NCBI GenBank assembly: GCA_016432525.1
Contig: CP066693.1
Span: forward strand, 689,773 to 713,772
Reading direction: 5' to 3'
DNA length: 24,000 nt
From: Candidatus Woesebacteria bacterium
GTDB taxonomy: Bacteria > Patescibacteriota > Microgenomatia > UBA8517
The notes beneath the pieces were generated by a model, which ran no database searches, had not been told where the DNA came from, and saw nothing but the letters and a program-made list of their open reading frames with translations. The stretch's first letter is position 1. Each line of letters begins with the position of its first letter. This document shows, piece by piece, positions 5,443 to 13,661 of this stretch. The position numbers were made by a program, and so were the translations under genes.

Positions 5443-5683
5443 TCATTCTTGAATCAGCTTCTTAAACTCATTTCCCTTTTGTAAGATTTTATTTCTAATT
5501 CTCTGTCAACCGCCTGGTTTCTAAAATCAAATTTTCACTATAAACAATTTCGTAAGGACCTTTATTCCTAGTATATTTACTTCCTCCTTTATTGTGTCTC
5601 AATAATCTTTTTTCTAAATTGCAAGTTGAACCAATATAATGTTTTCCAGTAGTAAGACTTCGAAGAATATATACGTAATACAC
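5443..5683 (-). pseudogene. GIY-YIG nuclease family gene (UPF0213-like), apparently frameshifted twice
   Basis: VYYVYILRSLTTGKHYIGSTCNLEKRLLRHN is the GIY-YIG core. After ...IVYSENLILET the expected C-terminus is found in the other two frames (QAVDRELEIKSYK, then GNEFKKLIQE-stop). The track ORF's N-terminal extension overlaps tRNA-Gly. Confidence 0.6.
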
Positions 5684-5687
5684 CTTG

Positions 5688-5759
5688 AGCGGCGGACCGG
5701 GTTTGAACCGGCGACCTCTTCCTTGGCAAGGAAGCATTCTACCACTGAACTACCGCCGC
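5688..5759 (-). tRNA. tRNA-Gly (anticodon GCC)
   Basis: Acceptor GCGGCGG/CCGCCGC, anticodon loop TT-GCC-AA, T-arm GCCGG-TTCAAAC-CCGGT. Confidence 0.9.
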
Positions 5760-6050: not shown

Positions 6051-6148
6051 CTGTGCTCTACATATTATACCATTCGAACTTACTTTCAGTCTCAATGCGG
6101 AGTGGCGGCTTGAACGCCACCAAGCCGCCACGTTATTTCTACCACTCG
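6051..6148 (+). repeat. left junction: core + arm Y (98 bp), perfect inverted copy at 11749..11846
   Basis: 98/98 identity to the reverse complement of 11749..11846, checked base by base. Contains a minus-strand TGGTATAAT box (6064..6072) and an 11-bp-stem hairpin (6102..6131). Confidence 0.95.
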
Positions 6149-6510
6149 GCGCTCATCGCCTCGTGGGTAAGATTCTCTTTTGCGCGCGTACAGTCGCTTT
6201 GCGACTGATTTATAAATTTACCCCTTACAAGGAAAGTGCGGGGTTGCCTAAAGCAACTGCCTTGCAGAACAAGCGGCAAAGAAATGCCTCAAAGTTTTGC
6301 TTCGCAAAAGTACCAAGCTAACGCAAGGCACAGAAGTTCCCCGCCAGTTTGGCGGGGAAGAGGCTAAGTTCCTGCTTCCAGCAGGAAGCCGCTTTCATCC
6401 GCCTTCGGCGGTTGCGCTCCTGCGAGGAAATTGACTACGCAATTTAGTGCGGCTCGCGCCGCACTCAAACAGAACCACACCGTAAAACTAAACCCGTGCA
6501 GATGCCGTGC
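6149..6510. other. ORF-free GC-rich region with at least 7 perfect short stem-loops (candidate structured RNA or protein-binding/origin region)
   Basis: Hairpins at 6191..6207, 6243..6257, 6295..6309, 6337..6359 (9 bp), 6369..6387, 6399..6411 and 6446..6465 (8 bp). No ORF of 60 aa or more on any frame. Strand undetermined. Confidence 0.4.
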
Positions 6511-6512
6511 TT

Positions 6513-6541
6513 TTGCCTCAAGTTAATGATATAAATATATA
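6513..6541 (+). promoter_or_regulatory. candidate sigma70-type promoter TTGCCT-N17-TATATA for the Fic-ART operon
   Basis: Hexamers and spacing read directly. Located 38 nt upstream of the 47-aa ORF. Confidence 0.35.
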
Positions 6542-6578
6542 TGAACCTAATTGTTCGGTAACTCTTATTTAATTAACC

Positions 6579-6722
6579 ATGCACGATATCCCTGAAAAAC
6601 AAGCAAAGAAAGATTTAGAATTGATGCTCCAAAATTTAAAAATTACTGAAGAGAAGATGCAAAGGTCGCTGCCTACAAACAAAGAGCAAAAGAAACGACC
6701 GATTATCCCAAAAACAAACTAA
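6579..6722 (+). CDS. possible 47-aa basic/charged ORF immediately upstream of the Fic-ART gene
   Basis: ATG..TAA with the stop 3 nt before the Fic-ART ATG (possible coupling). No SD. Lacks the FicA antitoxin motif (S/T)xxxE(G/N). Confidence 0.3.
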   Translation: MHDIPEKQAKKDLELMLQNLKITEEKMQRSLPTNKEQKKRPIIPKTN

Positions 6723-6725
6723 ACC

Positions 6726-9137
6726 ATGGAAGACAACATCGCAGGATCCGAGACACTTACAGCAGAGCGAATTTTGAACGATGAAGAAACAGAAAACAGG
6801 CGTACGCTCTTAACAATTATTTCCTCTCAAAGAGAAGCTATTACCTCCCGCCTTTCATCTTTTCAAGAACGAGTGGTACTATCCTTAAATGATGAAAAGG
6901 CTTTAAGACACGAGTGCCGAGAATTAGAGCAACAACTTGGGATTGAGACAGAGGAACAACGCATACTTGAAGCAAGTCTGTTTATAGACATGCCCTTTTT
7001 GGAAGTATCTGCTTTGAGGAAAGACAAACACCCAGAAGAGCTGTTTGGGATTGAAGCGTGGAAGGGCTGGTTGTCTGCCAGAATTACGGCACGACAAATG
7101 GACGAGCTTTCAGTTGAGGGAATTGTTGAGCTACATACAAAATTAGCAGAAGGGATGGATATTACGGGCGGACAACTTAGAAGTAAAAGTGCAATTGGAG
7201 CAGATTACACAAATACTGGTTCTCCTATTACTTTTACAAAGAGCCAAGCCACAGCAACTGAACAAAATCCACTTTTAGGCGTTCGCTATACCGATGAAGA
7301 AAAAAAAGAGGGTTTTATTGTATATCCCACAATTGATGACCCGAAAAGTTTTGAGAAGGTGATGAGTCAATTAACCTCACTTCAGCGAACAGGTTTACGG
7401 TATGGCGCAACAAATGAAAAACTTGTAAATGTGCTACTTCAAAGCACTATTGAGTGGCACAAGGAACAAAACAATAATTTAGCGGAGGGAGATTCAAATG
7501 CCCAAACTGAACTTGCCGCAGAGCTACAACGAAGAATAGTTTCCATACACGCATTTGATGATGGCAACGGCAGATTATCAAGGCTTCTTATGATTAGAGA
7601 GCTTGAAAAACACAATGAACCACCAACCATTTTAAGGCGTGGAGAAGATGATTTATTTTTTACTCCACAAGAATGGGTGCAGGAAGTGCGAGAAGGGCAA
7701 TCAAGGTACGAACAAATGCAAGAACGAATGACAGGTTCTCGGTACGCAAAAGCCGAGGACTTTTTAGTTGGCTTACAAAAACAAGCATATTTTGACACTG
7801 TGTACCAATCTGTTTATCCACCTCCCACTTCTGATGCACCCATGAGGCACACTGAATATCGAGCTTATCTAGAGCAACTTAACGAAATATATTCGCACTT
7901 TGCAGAATACACAGAAGGGAAAACTTGGTTACGTTGGAATAACACACAAGAAATACACATGGGAGGGCTTGTTTCTCCTGATTATTCTCGAGTATGGTGC
8001 GATACTCGACCAGAAGTGCAACAGAGGTCAAGAGAACGATATTTTGACCAAGAACTCAAAGTTTTTCGAGGTGGAGCTTGTGAAGGAATAACTGACACAA
8101 AACAACTTTTATCTGTTTTTACAGAGCCAACCGGTTTCTGCGCAGGTTACCACGCTCTTTTGGAAGAAGGAGTTTCTCCAATTAGTCTTAATTCGTTACC
8201 AATTGAGCGAATACAAAGTGAACTTAACGCGTACAATACAACAGTTCTTCGTGATACTGAGGTTAACCAAGGAGAGACTCTTGTTTCAGATGAGGTTTTA
8301 AATCAAGCAATGATAAGGGAGAGTCAGGATCAGCAAATTGCGAGAAGACTGAAATTCACATCAGAAGATGAAGAAAGAAGAGCTAGTGAATTTGCAAGTG
8401 GGGGACATATGCTTTACTTATTAAAAGTGCATACAGAGGGAAAAGCTCCTGGGTTGTGGCTTTCACCTGGAGTGAGCACCTCAATAGATGAAACCGAAGC
8501 TAGAAAATTCCTTACTACTCTAAAAGACGCCGGAGCTGAAAAACGAGTTGCATTGTTTATCTCAAGTAAATTGCCCAAACAAGGTATTTTTTACTCTCCA
8601 TCTAATCGGAGTCTGCCAATTACACGAGATTTTTACCCCAATATACCGTATCAAACAATAGTTGATGAGCAAGAAGTTGTGATAATGGGTGGAATTGACA
8701 GAAGTAGCTTACAAGCAATCGCCCATCGAAATGAAAATAATCATATAGTTTTAGTTGATTTTTCTACCAAAGAAAAAAGTATTTATAGATTTAATAAAAA
8801 AGGTGAATTAAGACTCCTTAAAAATAGAGCTTTAACAGAAGATGAGATTTCTGTTTTGAAAAAGACAAACAGACAATTGGGATCAGATAGCTATGATAAC
8901 AACAATAATTACGAAGATGAGGAGAACGAACCAAGTACGACTTATGACGATGAGCCGATTGACGATAATGAAGCGGAAGAGAAATTCCTACCGGCTTATT
9001 TGTCGGCCTCAACATTAGCAAAACTACATGACTCGCACTTATTTGATGAGGATGATGATGAAGACGAAAGTGTTTATTTAGGCTCTAGTACTCTTGCTAA
9101 TCTGAAGCAGAATCTGCAAATTGTTAATAAAGAATGA
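6726..9137 (+). CDS. two-domain Fic (AMPylase-type Fido) + R-S-E ADP-ribosyltransferase protein with acidic repeat tail (803 aa)
   Basis: Fic motif HAFDDGNGRLSR at codons 275-286 (7548..7583). Candidate auto-inhibitory TKLAEG at codons 138-143. ART triad: VFRGG (R448, 8067), GVSTSIDETEARKF (S584-T-S, 8475), DEQEVVIMGG (E648-x-E650, 8667), plus a KLPKQGIFYS strand resembling VIP2/C3-type toxins. Confidence 0.75.
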   Translation: MEDNIAGSETLTAERILNDEETENRRTLLTIISSQREAITSRLSSFQERVVLSLNDEKALRHECRELEQQLGIETEEQRILEASLFIDMPFLEVSALRKDKHPEELFGIEAWKGWLSARITARQMDELSVEGIVELHTKLAEGMDITGGQLRSKSAIGADYTNTGSPITFTKSQATATEQNPLLGVRYTDEEKKEGFIVYPTIDDPKSFEKVMSQLTSLQRTGLRYGATNEKLVNVLLQSTIEWHKEQNNNLAEGDSNAQTELAAELQRRIVSIHAFDDGNGRLSRLLMIRELEKHNEPPTILRRGEDDLFFTPQEWVQEVREGQSRYEQMQERMTGSRYAKAEDFLVGLQKQAYFDTVYQSVYPPPTSDAPMRHTEYRAYLEQLNEIYSHFAEYTEGKTWLRWNNTQEIHMGGLVSPDYSRVWCDTRPEVQQRSRERYFDQELKVFRGGACEGITDTKQLLSVFTEPTGFCAGYHALLEEGVSPISLNSLPIERIQSELNAYNTTVLRDTEVNQGETLVSDEVLNQAMIRESQDQQIARRLKFTSEDEERRASEFASGGHMLYLLKVHTEGKAPGLWLSPGVSTSIDETEARKFLTTLKDAGAEKRVALFISSKLPKQGIFYSPSNRSLPITRDFYPNIPYQTIVDEQEVVIMGGIDRSSLQAIAHRNENNHIVLVDFSTKEKSIYRFNKKGELRLLKNRALTEDEISVLKKTNRQLGSDSYDNNNNYEDEENEPSTTYDDEPIDDNEAEEKFLPAYLSASTLAKLHDSHLFDEDDDEDESVYLGSSTLANLKQNLQIVNKE

Positions 9138-9155
9138 AATTTTTTAGTAAAATAA

Positions 9156-9202
9156 AACCCTCTGTTTGTGTCGATATAAAATCGTTCACTACTAAGAGGG
9201 TT
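9156..9202 (-). terminator. hairpin (aaccctct / agagggtt, 31-nt loop) between the convergent Fic-ART and 64-aa genes
   Basis: 8-bp stem. On the minus strand it is followed by the T-rich ttattttact. The loop is long, so this is weak as an intrinsic terminator. Confidence 0.3.
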
Positions 9203-9208
9203 ACGTCC

Positions 9209-9403
9209 TTAAGGAAGTGGTTTGGCTAGACCTTCGTGCTCTCGACGCATTGCCAAATTGTATTCTGCTTGCTCTTCGTGGGTGAGCTGTTCACTACGTT
9301 CTCGCTTCCCGCGAGTAAATCGAACAAAAATATCATGGTGGGTTTGACGGGTTTTTCTGACGAACTCAAGCCACTCTTCAGCAGTCTCCGGCTCTGTATT
9401 CAT
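9209..9403 (-). CDS. hypothetical small charged protein (64 aa); candidate regulator or recombination directionality factor (speculative)
   Basis: Good SD (aaggag, 8-nt spacing). Minus-strand TGATATACT box at 9441..9449. No domain recognised. Confidence 0.55.
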   Translation of the reverse strand: MNTEPETAEEWLEFVRKTRQTHHDIFVRFTRGKRERSEQLTHEEQAEYNLAMRREHEGLAKPLP

Positions 9404-9620
9404 GATAGTAACTCCTTGTTAGTGTTGGACGACTAAAAGAAGTATATCAAATTGAGGCAATAAACAAGTTTGTTTTTACGAAATAAAAATCCCCCCAGTG
9501 ATATTTGATTGTCCGTAGACGTACAAACCCTTGGAGGGATATAGAAGACAAGAGCAAGTGTGATACCGAGAAAGGCATCAATGTAAAACTGATTAACTCA
9601 GCTCACACTTGCAAAAAGAC

Positions 9621-10664
9621 CTAGTCGTCGTTCTCGTCAAACAGATGAGCATCGCGCAGCTTCTTCAGCGTGCTGGCTCCGAGGAGTGACTCGTCATCGT
9701 CTTCTTCCTTGAAAAGAAGCTCTCCCAGCTTACGCATAGGCGTGTAGCCATCAGGCTGCAAGTCCTCTGGTGAGAGGGCATACCAAGCACTTTCTTTCCC
9801 GTCAGAACGGAACGTCTTGTGCTCAGTGCCGAGACCAAAGGCTTTGTAAATCGCGGCCTTAATTGACTCAGGCAGGTTGACGTTGGAACGCCAATTCTTT
9901 TTTGCCCAAGCGAGAGCCTGCTCAGCCGTCCAGACGACGTCTTCTTCGTTCAGCCCACGATTGTAAATCGGGGTTGGACTTTGCATTCCTGCTGCACGTT
10001 CCCACGTAAAACGGGCGCCACCAGCATGGAAGCAAAAGCTAATGTTGAGACTCGTAGGAACTGAACCTTCTGCCCGATACCGCAGATTGCTGGCAATGAT
10101 TGCCGCACTCTCAGGCGAACGAGCAAAGTTATGCCCAGAGTATTCGTCCGTGCATAAAGCAGACCCGCGCGGGAAACTGTGCCAACGCTTGGCGTAGGCA
10201 ATAATCTCCACATGGGGATGCTGTTCCGCAATGCGAGTACCGATAGCCGCGAGCCAGTTCATGAACTCATGGTTCATGTCTGTACCCTCAACAACGACAC
10301 TAACAATGCGCCACTGGTCCCAATCTGTAAGGGACGCAAAAAACTCAACCACTTCGGCTGGTGTAAGCTTGACGTTTGTACTCATTTTGATTCTCACTTT
10401 CATGGATAGTCCCTTATCCAGAGCTTTCAGCTCAGGAACGGGAATCTTCAGGATAAAGCCACCATAGACCACCTCCAAAACTGCGAGGTGATTATCCCAA
10501 TCGTGGGGACGATTAGGTGCAAACTGCACTTGTACCTGATTAAGGTACTCACGCAAGATTTGCAAAATGGTGTCGTTCAGCTCACCAAAGTTCTTGGTAA
10601 GCCTTGCTGCCTGCTGAAGAATTTCAGCATTTTTTAGCAGCTGCCCCAAACTTTTCTTAGCCAT
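9621..10664 (-). CDS. hypothetical protein (347 aa) ending in the ESLLGASTLKKLRDAHLFDENDD motif
   Basis: Start chosen at ATG 10664, preceded by GGAGG (cagggaggaaataaaATG). The 94-codon upstream extension in the track has no signal. About 53% GC in spot counts. No domain recognised. Confidence 0.7.
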   Translation of the reverse strand: MAKKSLGQLLKNAEILQQAARLTKNFGELNDTILQILREYLNQVQVQFAPNRPHDWDNHLAVLEVVYGGFILKIPVPELKALDKGLSMKVRIKMSTNVKLTPAEVVEFFASLTDWDQWRIVSVVVEGTDMNHEFMNWLAAIGTRIAEQHPHVEIIAYAKRWHSFPRGSALCTDEYSGHNFARSPESAAIIASNLRYRAEGSVPTSLNISFCFHAGGARFTWERAAGMQSPTPIYNRGLNEEDVVWTAEQALAWAKKNWRSNVNLPESIKAAIYKAFGLGTEHKTFRSDGKESAWYALSPEDLQPDGYTPMRKLGELLFKEEDDDESLLGASTLKKLRDAHLFDENDD

Positions 10665-10897
10665 TTTATTTCCTCCCTGAGGTATAAGGCTAAAGTTGAA
10701 CGATTCAACACAAAACCCTGTTCTGTGTGAGCCACTCCATAGTGACTTTTTGCGCACCAAAACTGATGCCCAAAGTGCCACCATGGAATAAATGAGAATT
10801 TCTAGGTCTTTATTTTGAATGTGCAAATTTATACTTTCGTCTTGCCAAAAGCTAACTTTCGGAAGACTCATCAGTCCAGCTAAGCTGGAGAGTACGT

Positions 10898-10964
10898 GCA
10901 GGTGGAGTTGAGTTGAAAGGCAATGATGAAATCGTGATGATTTCAAAACTCAACTCGCACCTGC
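10898..10964 (-). other. long imperfect hairpin (17-bp arms, one bulge) 7 nt downstream of the 167-aa gene stop
   Basis: gcaggtggagttgagtt (10898..10914) pairs with aactcaactcgcacctgc (10947..10964). No U-tract, so function as a terminator is unproven. Confidence 0.3.
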
Positions 10965-10971
10965 GAAACGC

Positions 10972-11475
10972 CTATCGGTAGAGGTCAATCGGATACCGTT
11001 TGTAAAAAATCGGTGTACCGATTTTCCAGCCACCGATGTTGAAACCGGCCTCAGCCAATCTCGCTAAGGCTTCTCCCAGCAGAGACTTGTTGTCCCCGCT
11101 GATGACCATTTTAAACCCTTTGTTCCCGTATTCTTCATACGAGAGGGTTAGGTCATTCGAGACCGCCTCAACGATTGAGGTGATCTCGTTCCAGTTAGCC
11201 ATTCTGCGGCTAAGGCCTTCGTGAACCAGTCCTGGATTTTCAGCGCTCAGCGCTTCAAACCCTTTCAAGGTTAGGCCGTAAAACCAGCCAGCGCCGACTA
11301 CAGCAAATCCTTGGTCGACAAGCACGGTGGCTTGTTGCACCTTCTCAGGTGGCCACCAAGCAGGCAACGGCTTGTTTGCATCATGCAGACGATTGAGCAT
11401 ATTGCTCGACGCCTGAAACGCAACCGCCGTACCTGTGGTGCGGCCCAACAATTCTAACCCAAATTTGTTAGCCAT
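10972..11475 (-). CDS. hypothetical protein (167 aa)
   Basis: Strong SD (taaggaggattaaaATG). GC-rich codon usage like the 347-aa neighbour. No domain recognised. Confidence 0.7.
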   Translation of the reverse strand: MANKFGLELLGRTTGTAVAFQASSNMLNRLHDANKPLPAWWPPEKVQQATVLVDQGFAVVGAGWFYGLTLKGFEALSAENPGLVHEGLSRRMANWNEITSIVEAVSNDLTLSYEEYGNKGFKMVISGDNKSLLGEALARLAEAGFNIGGWKIGTPIFYKRYPIDLYR

Positions 11476-11632
11476 TTTAATCCTCCTTAAGGACTCAGGG
11501 CTGGCAGCCCGCTGATGGTCATTCTAAATGAATGCCAGTTTAGCCTCAAACTCTAATTAAAGCTAAATTAGCATCCACTAGCTTTATTAGGTCTTTGTTT
11601 AAATGTGCAGATAGAAGGTAATTTATGGTGCT

Positions 11633-11661
11633 ATAGTAGCATGAATGAAGCTAAAAGTCAA
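11633..11661 (-). promoter_or_regulatory. sigma70-type promoter TTGACT-N17-TACTAT for the 167-aa gene, leaving a ~150-nt leader
   Basis: Hexamers and 17-nt spacer read directly on the minus strand. Confidence 0.5.
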
Positions 11662-11748
11662 GAACTATAGGGAATATGACGAATAATTTTTGCTTTTTTC
11701 TTTTTAGGGAACGAGCCAACTTTTTTGACCCACTTCAGCGCTTCGCGT

Positions 11749-11934
11749 CGAGTGGTAGAAATAACGTGGCGGCTTGGTGGCGTTCAAGCCGCCACTCCGC
11801 ATTGAGACTGAAAGTAAGTTCGAATGGTATAATATGTAGAGCACAGCAAGGGAGCCGAGGGCTCATCGCAGGCTGCGATTGGCCGCGCAGCCAGCGAAAT
11901 ATGTGGATTGTTTGGGGAAAAGTGGATACGTTTA
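11749..11934 (-). repeat. internal inverted copy of the predicted excision junction (arm X + core + arm Y), 186 bp
   Basis: 11749..11846 is the exact reverse complement of 6051..6148 (98/98). 11841..11934 is the exact reverse complement of 13427..13520 (94/94). The two share the core gcacag at 11841..11846. Confidence 0.95.
11825..11833 (+). promoter_or_regulatory. TGGTATAAT extended -10 box within the inverted Y arm, oriented toward the recombinase gene
   Basis: Same box as 6064..6072 (there on the minus strand, facing tRNA-Val). Matches the host tRNA promoter style TATAATATG. Confidence 0.45.
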
Positions 11935-11996
11935 GGATAAGGATAGAAAAAAGAAAATCGCAAAAATTATATGTTTCAGAAATGTTATTCTGAAAC

Positions 11997-13661
11997 ATGA
12001 GCAAAACTTCAGTTGCTTCTGTAATAAAGCCTAAATACCTCGGTTATTGTCGCAAGTCCACAGACGAGAAAGAAAAACAGATTTTGTCTATAGATCAGCA
12101 GATTGATGAGTTAAAAACTTTCGCTTCAAGGGAAAATCTAGAAATAGTAGAGTTCTTTGTTGAAAAAAAGACTGCTAAAGAACCTGGTCGCTCAGTTTTT
12201 AACAATCTGCTGAAATTGGTAGAAAAAGGATTGGCAGATGGAATTGTTGCATGGCACCCTGATCGATTAGCCCGAAACAGTGTGGATGGTGGAAAGATTA
12301 TCTACCTTTTGGATACAGGCCAACTTCAAGATTTGAAGTTCCCAACTTTCTGGTTTCAAAACACACCTCAAGGCAAGTTCATGCTAAACATCGCGTTTGG
12401 CCAGAGCAAATATTATGTAGATAATCTTTCAGAAAATGTAAAGCGTGGATTGCATTTCAAAGCCAGACGTGGAGAGTGGCCTTCCTTTGCCCCCTTCGGC
12501 TATAAAAATGACCGTAATACAAGAAATATTGTTGTCGTGCCACAGCAAACAGAACTTGTTAAATATGTATTTACTCATTTCGCCTCAGGGGAACTATCTT
12601 CAACACGAGATGTCAGAAGTTACCTTTTTAAGAAGGGTGTAAAGCGAAAAAATGGAAGGCCACTTCACTACAATCAAATTCGTGCAATTCTTACTCGCAG
12701 TTTATATTACGGTGTCTTTATATATGGTGGTGAAACTTACGAAAGTAAACTTCCACCTTTAATATCCCAAGAGCTGTTTGACAAGGTTCAGGTGCGTCTA
12801 AAGAGACTTCAGCCAACTAATCTCAAAAAGCACGAATTTAATTTCACAGGGCTTATGAAATGCATAGAATGTGGAAGTTTTATTACGGCTGAGAGTCACA
12901 CCAAGCATTACAAATGTGCAAAACGAACCGCAGTTTATATTTATTATCGTTGTGTGAAGAAAAAAGGTGTTTGCTCTCAGCCTTATGTAACAGAAGCTGA
13001 AGTTGAAACTCAGTTGAGAGAAATTGTGAAAAAGTGCTCGCTTTCACCAATATGGGAAAAAGGTTTTATGGAGCTTCTTCTAAAAGATGAATTGGAAGCA
13101 AGAGCTCGCACTTCAGTTGAGCTTTGCTCAATCACAACTTCTCTTGAAGCAGTTGAAAAGAAACTTAGCCGTCTGTTAGAACTATACCTTGAAGAAAGTA
13201 TTGAAGCTGAGGATTATCAGTTAAAGAAAAATCAACTGCTTCACAAGAAACTTGATTTAAAATCCCAGATTGAGAGGGTAAAAGCTGACGGAGTAAGTTG
13301 GCTCGAACCTTTGAGGAACTTTATTATTGAGTCCGCAAATGCGGACAAAATCGCGCGCGCAAAAGAGAATCGCAGTGATTTGGCAATCACTGCCAAAAAA
13401 GTCGGCTCGAACTACTTGCTATTTGATAAACGTATCCACTTTTCCCCAAACAATCCACATATTTCGCTGGCTGCGCGGCCAATCGCAGCCTGCGATGAGC
13501 CCTCGGCTCCCTTGCTGTGCGGGAGACAGGACTTGAACCTGCACGGATTTCTCCATACGCACCTCAAGCGTACGTGTATACCAGTTTCACCACTCCCGCA
13601 AATCTCAAAGTGCCGAAGGAGAGATTTGAACTCTCACGCTCAAAAGAGCACACGCTCCTGA
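11997..13661 (+). CDS. large serine recombinase (integrase)
   Basis: N-terminal resolvase domain (YCRKS21TDEK, HPDRLARN), recombinase domain, zinc-ribbon cysteines (CIECGS...YYRCVKKKGVC) and a coiled-coil region. The last 47 codon positions (46 sense codons plus stop) read through the right junction into antisense tRNA-Leu genes. Confidence 0.9.
   Translation: MSKTSVASVIKPKYLGYCRKSTDEKEKQILSIDQQIDELKTFASRENLEIVEFFVEKKTAKEPGRSVFNNLLKLVEKGLADGIVAWHPDRLARNSVDGGKIIYLLDTGQLQDLKFPTFWFQNTPQGKFMLNIAFGQSKYYVDNLSENVKRGLHFKARRGEWPSFAPFGYKNDRNTRNIVVVPQQTELVKYVFTHFASGELSSTRDVRSYLFKKGVKRKNGRPLHYNQIRAILTRSLYYGVFIYGGETYESKLPPLISQELFDKVQVRLKRLQPTNLKKHEFNFTGLMKCIECGSFITAESHTKHYKCAKRTAVYIYYRCVKKKGVCSQPYVTEAEVETQLREIVKKCSLSPIWEKGFMELLLKDELEARARTSVELCSITTSLEAVEKKLSRLLELYLEESIEAEDYQLKKNQLLHKKLDLKSQIERVKADGVSWLEPLRNFIIESANADKIARAKENRSDLAITAKKVGSNYLLFDKRIHFSPNNPHISLAARPIAACDEPSAPLLCGRQDLNLHGFLHTHLKRTCIPVSPLPQISKCRRRDLNSHAQKSTRS
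13427..13520 (+). repeat. right junction: arm X + core (94 bp), perfect inverted copy at 11841..11934
   Basis: 94/94 identity, checked base by base. Overlaps recombinase codons 478-508. Confidence 0.95.
13518..13599 (-). tRNA. tRNA-Leu (anticodon GAG), type II; integration target
   Basis: Acceptor GCGGGAG/CTCCCGC, anticodon loop TT-GAG-GT, T-arm CAGG-TTCAAGT-CCTG, 82 nt. Confidence 0.9.

Follow-up and report, generated by a model that had tools for sequence, protein, structure and literature searches.

The window analysed here, a stretch of 24,000 nucleotides (nt) from a Candidatus Woesebacteria bacterium (assembly GCA_016432525.1, contig CP066693.1, positions 689,773-713,772), contains an island of ~7.5 kb (roughly 6051-13520) between a tRNA-Val and a tRNA-Leu gene. 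The island has a G+C content of 40-50%, against 33-38% in its flanks, and carries a 47-amino acid (aa) open reading frame (ORF), an 803-aa Fic protein, a 64-aa ORF, a 347-aa protein, a 167-aa protein, and a large serine recombinase. The Fic protein (6726..9137, plus strand) appears to be a fusion with an ADP-ribosyltransferase (ART) and is referred to below as Fic-ART; the 347-aa protein (9621..10664, minus strand) has no assigned function. Both carry a C-terminal, acidic-flanked peptide, L[GS]ASTL[AK]KL[RH]D[SA]HLFDE, hereafter the tag, which is, to judge from its sequence, almost certainly related to the C-terminal tail of ribosomal protein uS2 in the Chloroflexota class Anaerolineae.

Fic-ART ends with ...AYLSASTLAKLHDSHLFDEDDDEDESVYLGSSTLANLKQNLQIVNKE and the 347-aa protein with ...EEDDDESLLGASTLKKLRDAHLFDENDD, the latter occupying residues 320-347 (9624..9707, minus strand) immediately before the stop codon. 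Copy 1 of the tag on Fic-ART (AYLSASTLAKLHDSHLFDEDDDEDE, residues 757-781; 8994..9068, plus strand) starts 45 residues before the stop codon, copy 2 (SVYLGSSTLANLKQNLQIVNKE; 9069..9134, plus strand) is terminal, and the tag of the 347-aa protein starts 20 residues before its stop codon. When the two proteins were compared by BLASTP, the tails were the only aligned segment (copy 1 against the 347-aa tag: 15/20 identities, E 4e-6), with a second alignment between copy 2 and the 347-aa tag (E 0.018). The back-translated core L[GS][AS]STL[AK][KN]L occurs three times in the window, as against 0.02 matches expected from shuffled sequences. A preliminary description of this DNA had proposed a C-terminal motif common to these otherwise unrelated proteins and kept at the peptide level, and both points are borne out. 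The 17-residue cores of the two best copies are 76% identical as protein and 51% identical as DNA, with the same codon at just 3 of the 13 identical residues. Because the residues match while the codons differ, the similarity is kept at the peptide level, and the comparison indicates that the residues of the tag are under selection. Both copies on Fic-ART lie within residues 717-803, which AlphaFold2 modelled with a predicted local distance difference test score (pLDDT) below 50 and with short helices on the motifs; on the 347-aa protein, a helix is predicted at residues 331-339 within a low-confidence tail. According to these models, the tag-bearing tails are probably disordered. The preliminary description had also pointed to a weaker relative, SLLGEALARLAEAGF, in the 167-aa protein (11041..11085, minus strand). 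This segment gave no match to the uS2-tail profile described below, also when every filter was switched off. It lies inside the protein (residues 131-145 of 167) and lacks acidic flanks; it was rejected as a tag.

A degenerate DNA pattern for L[GS][AS]STL[AK][KN]L[RHK..][DNQ..]xxLF[DE][DE] was scanned against one genome for each of 185,579 GTDB species and against JGI metagenomes. It gave 51 matches in total; in 50 of them the matched peptide is the tail at the very C-terminus of uS2 from Anaerolineae. Among the GTDB species genomes there were 36 matches: 35 fall in the last 19-73 residues of uS2 and the remaining one is a chance 28-aa ORF. The matching genomes are labelled Anaerolineae, Anaerolineaceae, Aggregatilineales, Phototrophicales, Ca. 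Flexifilum, or Chloroflexota, and the 185,579-species scan returned no match in Patescibacteria. All 15 matches in the JGI metagenomes are likewise uS2 tails. The peptide is thus not, as had been supposed, special to toxins or mobile cargo. The lack of association with mobile islands or toxins that the preliminary description had named as grounds for abandoning its proposal is found in part, the dominant carrier being a housekeeping protein, while the strict C-terminal bias is real.

The uS2 tails have the form ...DDEA[YL]LGASTLAKLR[DN]xKLF[DE]E.... Four tail-bearing proteins scored 325-344 bits on the TIGR01011 model (rpsB_bact), with the tail lying beyond the model, and in 45 loci tsf directly follows rpsB. 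Across 46 unique uS2 tails, G-A-S-T-L-A-K-L and L-F are invariant, even where the pattern left room for alternatives. The linker between the core motif PGNDDA and the tag is 54-60 residues long and 49% acidic, and LF is followed by a further 2-56 residues of variable length; it is the helix and LF that are conserved, as opposed to the acidic filler. The uS2 tail therefore has the anatomy of a short linear motif (SLiM) on a flexible leash. Literature searches for the uS2 tail motif, for the motif strings, and for 'sunset domain' turned up nothing, no NCBIfam or Pfam model covers the tag, and no chain in the PDB resembles the tag profile. The motif appears to be undescribed. A different C-terminal addition to uS2 is recorded as NCBIfam NF051451, '30S ribosomal protein S2, sunset domain variant'. 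Curators thus recognise lineage-specific C-terminal additions to uS2, and such additions seem to recur. The match of the Anaerolineae uS2 proteins to NF051451 is confined to the S2 core (positions 3-253 of 382; 269-297 bits against a cut-off of 710), and the tags have no match.

A uS2-tail profile was built from 44 unique tails (42 uS2 tails plus the tags of P0026 and P0030, two further carriers described below), with the window sequences left out. It scored 43.5 bits on the tag of the 347-aa protein, 33.4 bits on copy 1 of Fic-ART, and 18.0 bits on copy 2, the last a partial match to profile positions 1-19 only. Of the two tandem copies first proposed for Fic-ART, copy 1 therefore stands, whereas copy 2 is a degenerate half-copy that keeps the acidic run and YLGSSTLANL and has lost the LF-acidic end. 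All three window tags match the back-translated DNA pattern and belong with the core [YL][LF]GASTLAKL[RK][DN]xxLF[DE][DE]. The 347-aa tag is 60-77% identical to uS2 tails over 22-33 residues, and its DNA is up to 78% identical to that of some of them. In common with the Anaerolineae uS2 tail, the window tags have an acidic run before the motif, the stretch [YL]LGASTLAKL[RK][DN]xxLF, an acidic end (DENDD or DEDDD... after LF), and a position at the extreme C-terminus. They differ from it in having K for A, H for R, S for G, and H before LF, and in sitting on proteins that lack the uS2 core. Neither window protein has a match to the S2 core domain (TIGR01011 or PF00318) in Pfam or NCBIfam scans; they carry the tail only, i.e., they are not uS2 paralogues.

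The three window tags were also combined into a profile, and its comparison with 1.84 billion representative proteins gave 11 matches at E <= 1e-3. The genuine ones are the Fic protein itself, P0026, P0030, P0031, and fragments of uS2. P0026 (..DEEDDDESYLGSSTLAKLRDSKLFDEDDEE) and P0030 are unrelated proteins with the tag at the extreme C-terminus, P0031 is a 30-aa fragment with a tag, and P0032 is a uS2 fragment with PF00318. The 3,721-aa beta-helix protein P0025, which contains DDNAVVLGASTLSNL repeats, was a false positive of this profile, and P0027 and P0029 were repeat artefacts. The tail of P0013 (EDEILLASSLLAKKISS) looks related by eye and scored 0.6 bits against the uS2-tail profile; it was set aside. 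A word-indexed search with the tag alignment (5.8 billion sequences) returned eight candidates, none of which was scored, the query probably being too short. At the level of sequence, the same C-terminal, acid-flanked peptide is thus shown on uS2 of one bacterial class and on four unrelated accessory proteins.

These distributions bear on an alternative in which the tag is carried along passively. Recombination would have caught the 3' end of an rpsB gene, retained since as a harmless acidic, disordered tail (a solubility aid or entropic bristle) with no specific partner. The tail is indeed disordered and highly acidic, homologues of the carriers manage with plain acidic tails, and the similarity of the 347-aa tag to some uS2 tails at the DNA level agrees with such a capture. 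Against this, a mere passenger would hardly be expected on four unrelated proteins, twice on one of them, nor would the window copies be expected to share 76% of their residues and 3 of 13 codons, which indicates selection on residues. The conserved part, moreover, is the non-acidic helix with LF and not the acidic filler. We consider a passive origin unlikely.

The label Fic-ART, given to the 803-aa protein in the preliminary description, holds as a fair one for its predicted activities. The protein matches Pfam Fic (E 1.6e-8; 35.7 bits against a cut-off of 24), and its motif HAFDDGNGRLSR (residues 275-286; 7548-7583, plus strand) corresponds to the HxFx(D/E)GNGRxxR motif of the Fic/Doc family (PF02661). 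Compared with PDB profiles, it matches FICD (E 7e-16). No sequence family matches the ART half. The R-S-ExE motifs of cholera/pertussis-toxin-like ADP-ribosyltransferases are nevertheless recognisable as the R of VFRGG (8061-8075), STS (8472-8483), and ExE (8664-8681), all on the plus strand, and across 14 homologues R448 and E648/E650 are invariant and S584/S586 invariant or nearly so. The AlphaFold2 model of the C-terminal half was confident, with a predicted template modelling score (pTM) of 0.72. The best Foldseek matches of this half were the pertussis-like toxins EcPltA, PtxS1 (pertussis S1), and PltA (typhoid), with probabilities of up to 0.99, E-values of only 2.5e-3, and low TM-scores. 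Sequence motifs and predicted fold together are consistent with an ADP-ribosyltransferase of this type. The tag motif is absent from 13 Fic homologues. Directly upstream of the Fic-ART gene lies the 47-aa ORF (6579..6722, plus strand), and a small ORF of ~47-50 aa occupies the same place before the Fic-ART homologue on contigs L006 (9761-9913) and L007 (966-1118), with 42% identity over 36 residues. Its product may be a small partner, inhibitor, or antitoxin of Fic-ART. It lacks the classical Fic-inhibitory motif [ST]xxxE[GN]; the Fic protein itself has TKLAEG at residues 138-143.

The 347-aa protein belongs to no Pfam, PHROG, PADLOC, or NCBIfam family. Its model is poor (pLDDT 59), and a fold search gave meaningless matches only, with a root-mean-square deviation of ~17 Å. 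Its N-terminal module of ~94 aa (10383-10664, minus strand) recurs, with 64-85% identity, at the N-termini of proteins whose C-terminal domains are unrelated. In other contigs this module is joined to at least four such domains (L001 6811-7953, L008 7132-8301, L008 6075-6887), i.e., its architecture is polymorphic, and on L008 a second, diverged paralogue lies next door. Relatives of the 347-aa protein sit in islands of unassigned genes with a G+C content of ~50%. In L008, L009, L010, and L065, such islands, within contigs of ~41% G+C, recur just downstream of two genes, one for a TrmB-family regulator in divergent orientation and the other for a methyltransferase of 600-650 aa. They hold members of the 347-aa family as well as P0030, and the TrmB/methyltransferase site resembles a hotspot for integration or variability. 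Close homologues of the C-terminal domain of the 347-aa protein have plain aromatic-plus-acidic ends (HDEDED, WWDEDEDED, LFWESD). More generally, homologues of both carrier families (P0002-P0004, P0012, and P0020) often end in an aromatic residue and an acidic run, as in WWDEDEDED, AWANVSHDEDED, LFWESD, VFDPDED, FDPDED, and TFDPVDDEE. Since the helix motif is usually missing in homologues of both carriers and their tails are varied, the tails are exchangeable modules, and the aromatic-plus-acidic ones could be variants that fit the partners of other lineages.

We propose that the tag is a transplanted copy or mimic of the lineage-specific SLiM at the C-terminus of Anaerolineae uS2, and on balance we favour this reading as a whole. 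The tag reproduces the acidic run, short amphipathic helix, LF anchor, and acidic C-terminus of the uS2 tail, and would act as a docking handle on the Fic-ART toxin and the 347-aa protein as well as on at least two further unrelated accessory proteins. The preliminary description had suggested that one partner recognises the tag, and conservation at the peptide level on unrelated proteins points the same way. We infer that this partner is the receptor of the uS2 tail, which the tags would share with uS2. Docking would then bring the cargo near the small ribosomal subunit, or let it compete with uS2 for the receptor. From the location of uS2, on the solvent side of the small (30S) subunit, the receptor may be expected to belong to, or associate with, the translation apparatus. 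The best-known substrates of Fic/Doc enzymes and of pertussis-like ADP-ribosyltransferases are GTPases: Doc acts on EF-Tu, VopS and IbpA act on Rho GTPases, and pertussis toxin acts on G-alpha. By analogy with these GTPase-targeting families, a translational or ribosome-assembly GTPase, or else bS1, would be a plausible guess for the receptor.

EF-Ts was considered as a source of clues to the partner, its gene tsf lying directly downstream of rpsB. EF-Tu binds the N-terminal domain of EF-Ts. The N-terminal helix of EF-Ts (ITAQMVKDLREA) shares 4/13 identities with the tag segment ASTLAKLRDA, which is too weak to count. The faint likeness of the EF-Ts start (..ITAQMVKDLREATGAG.., in L014-L063) to the tag core (..GASTLAKLRDAKLF..) is probably due to chance and is kept only as a lead to the partner.

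Several observations weigh against a docking mimic of uS2. The window tags depart from the uS2 consensus at otherwise invariant sites (A to K, R to H, and G to S), and a change from K to H before LF is common to them; the tags might bind something slightly different from the partner of uS2. Known carriers other than uS2 number only five, namely four proteins and the fragment P0031. Nothing on the function of the uS2 tail turned up in the literature and nothing similar to the peptide in the PDB. The uS2 tails compared with the tags are all of the Anaerolineae type. The window, moreover, is from Woesebacteria, whereas the pattern has no match in Patescibacteria genomes, which leaves more than one candidate for the cell in which the tag would meet its receptor.

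A C-terminal, exposed, and disordered peptide could alternatively be a degron or chaperone handle by which a protease, adaptor, or chaperone would recognise uS2 in its free form and the proteins of the island. It would control their stability and, for example, keep the toxin short-lived or inactive. Unassembled ribosomal proteins are commonly degraded, and a toxin would profit from controlled turnover. Known C-terminal degrons, however, consist of the very last residues and are non-polar. In the tails examined, a stretch of 2-56 acidic residues, variable in length, follows LF, and a Pfam scan of the island found no gene for a protease or adaptor. We regard a function of this kind as rather unlikely.

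The preliminary description had listed an export or injection machine and packaging among the candidate readers of the tag, so that a type IV-like system or a capsid would send the cargo out. The C-terminal position is that of type IV secretion signals, the cargo includes a toxin, and the acidic composition recalls the Dot/Icm E-block. Chromosomal type IV secretion systems (T4SS) without a relaxase are also widely carried by Patescibacteria and have been suggested to be co-opted beyond conjugation (PMC12102498). Such a signal is nonetheless very improbable because the main natural carrier of the tag, accounting for 50/51 pattern matches, is a cytoplasmic ribosomal protein. Family scans of the island proteins detected no gene for secretion, a pilus, or a capsid. 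The 2.9 million viral contigs of IMG/VR lack the tag, the Fic-ART family, and the 347-aa N-terminal module alike, and neither carrier family has relatives among INPHARED phages or PLSDB plasmids. These absences led us to rule out a viral origin of the tag and its carriers. The tag also fails as a VirB/D4-type T4SS signal, for which a net positive or Arg-rich tail would be expected: the last 90 residues of the Fic protein contain 25 D+E versus 5 K+R, and those of the 347-aa protein 19 D+E versus 12 K+R.

Other known C-terminal peptides fit no better. Family 1 encapsulins load cargo through a C-terminal ...LxxGSLK... peptide, with a shell gene of HK97 fold nearby. The likeness of the tag to such a peptide is loose (LGASTLK against LGIGSLK), there is no shell or capsid gene in the island, and nothing similar was found in the PDB. 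In the C-terminal tip of single-stranded DNA-binding protein (SSB; DDDIPF-COOH), an acidic run leads to three hydrophobic residues with which the protein ends, whereas LF in the tag has a further 2-56 residues behind it in uS2 and DENDD or DEDDD... behind it in the window proteins. A beta-clamp-binding motif (QL[SD]LF or QLxLxL) was rejected, the corresponding part of the tag being [KR]L[RH]D[AS]HLF, with no Gln.

The closest likeness in concept nevertheless comes from the beta-clamp. The Caulobacter toxin SocB carries a beta-clamp-binding motif, so that a toxin bears a short peptide copied from the hub protein's own partners and is thereby delivered to the hub. The motif itself differs, the tag lacking the Q of QL[SD]LF, and the docking of the tag is proposed from sequence. 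In anatomy, the closest counterpart is the P-stalk tail of archaeal and eukaryotic ribosomes, in which an acidic linker ends in ...GLFD or ...LSALFG; it recruits translational GTPases and is bound by ricin-type toxins. Like the uS2 tail, it belongs to a ribosomal protein and combines a long, acidic, flexible linker with a short, conserved, hydrophobic L..LF handle. Protein, subunit, and sequence all differ, and toxins bind the P-stalk tail whereas here they carry the tail, so that the likeness is one of anatomy only. The Bep effectors of Bartonella join a Fic domain to a C-terminal BID domain and a charged tail that serve as T4SS signal. They resemble Fic-ART as Fic enzymes with a C-terminal add-on that sets the destination; the BID domain has ~100 residues and the Bep tail is positive, whereas the tag is a 20-residue acidic peptide of ribosomal type with no linked T4SS.

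The ends of the island bear on the question of its host. The left end, arm A on the attL side (6051..6159), starts with the core CTGTG and forms a 109-nt inverted repeat with 11738-11846 (96% complementary). The right end, arm B' on the attR side (13427..13520), forms a 94-nt inverted repeat with 11841-11934 (100% complementary) and finishes with CTGTG against the 3' end of tRNA-Leu(GAG). The layout is unusual in that the inverted copies of the two arms stand side by side directly upstream of the recombinase gene. This internal element, A'B (11738..11934), is the reverse complement of the joined ends, i.e., a second, inverted attP-like site, and the 5-nt core CTGTG is common to it and to both island ends. 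The large serine recombinase (11997..13661, plus strand) has the Pfam domains Resolvase, Recombinase, and Zn_ribbon_recom, and its ORF runs through attR into tRNA-Leu. With three recombinase domains, a short common core, and an adjoining tRNA gene, the island has the features of a large serine recombinase integrative element. Public assemblies break within the island-end repeats.

It could be argued that the island is foreign to the Woesebacteria chromosome and was joined to it by an assembly error, in which case the tag would belong to an Anaerolineae mobile element in an Anaerolineae cell. The G+C contrast between island and flanks is compatible with this, as is the state of the public records: the draft contig stops within the right-hand repeat, and the A/A' repeats form the bounds of an independent Logan contig. 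No record of the recombinase ORF as read in the window was found that would independently support the right junction. Contigs with relatives of the 347-aa protein also hold GH10/CBM60/PA14 and sugar-binding proteins and VanW, which are atypical for Patescibacteria. On the other hand, the left junction lies inside a 70.9-kb contig with ordinary Patescibacteria-like genes, and in the window the 100% repeat runs on for 26 nt past the end of the draft contig. The CTGTG core at both ends, with its internal copy, and the right end at the 3' end of tRNA-Leu are as in true site-specific integration. A chimera is thus unlikely; it would alter the host and leave the nature of the tag unchanged.

If the island is taken as part of the Woesebacteria chromosome, there are three options for how an Anaerolineae-type tag came to be there. 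The cargo could have been transferred from Chloroflexota mobile elements, an option raised because the segment with the 347-aa and 167-aa genes has the G+C content of the relatives' islands. The receptor could be conserved across phyla. As a third option, the proteins could be effectors aimed at an Anaerolineae host. In its full form, the last option would make the Woesebacteria an episymbiont or parasite of Anaerolineae that delivers Fic-ART and the 347-aa protein into its host, where the uS2-like tail targets them to the translation machinery. A literature search turned up no documented association of Woesebacteria with Anaerolineae, and we regard this scenario as speculative and improbable. 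Were it true, mimicry of a host protein's tail would be a new principle of effector targeting in parasitism between bacteria, and the hosts of Patescibacteria might be predicted from sequence.

A subset of Anaerolineae thus carries, at the end of uS2, a strictly conserved peptide on a long acidic leash of which no description turned up. In its design it recalls the P-stalk tail of archaeal and eukaryotic ribosomes and looks as if it served the small subunit as a recruiting handle; its partner can now be searched for with a defined 20-residue peptide. The presence of this peptide on proteins of a mobile island, including a predicted Fic and pertussis-like ART toxin, would be an instance of bacterial accessory or toxin genes mimicking a ribosomal protein through a short motif, and we class the finding as such mimicry, resting on a new, lineage-restricted ribosomal tail motif. 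A Chloroflexota motif in a Patescibacteria genome also bears on gene flow or host relations between the two groups.

Two further features were observed at the left of the island. Positions 6160-6500, at the island's left end, are non-coding, with a G+C content of ~48% and many hairpins (minimum free energy -131.7 kcal/mol, z = -4.2 against shuffled sequences). With the threshold relaxed to E <= 1 there is still no matching Rfam family, and the stretch may encode a structured RNA belonging to the element. The other feature is a short GIY-YIG ORF (5495-5759, minus strand; 62-80 aa; assigned to PF01541 by the public gene call), which lies in the tRNA cluster immediately to the left of the island and overlaps with tRNA-Gly(GCC).

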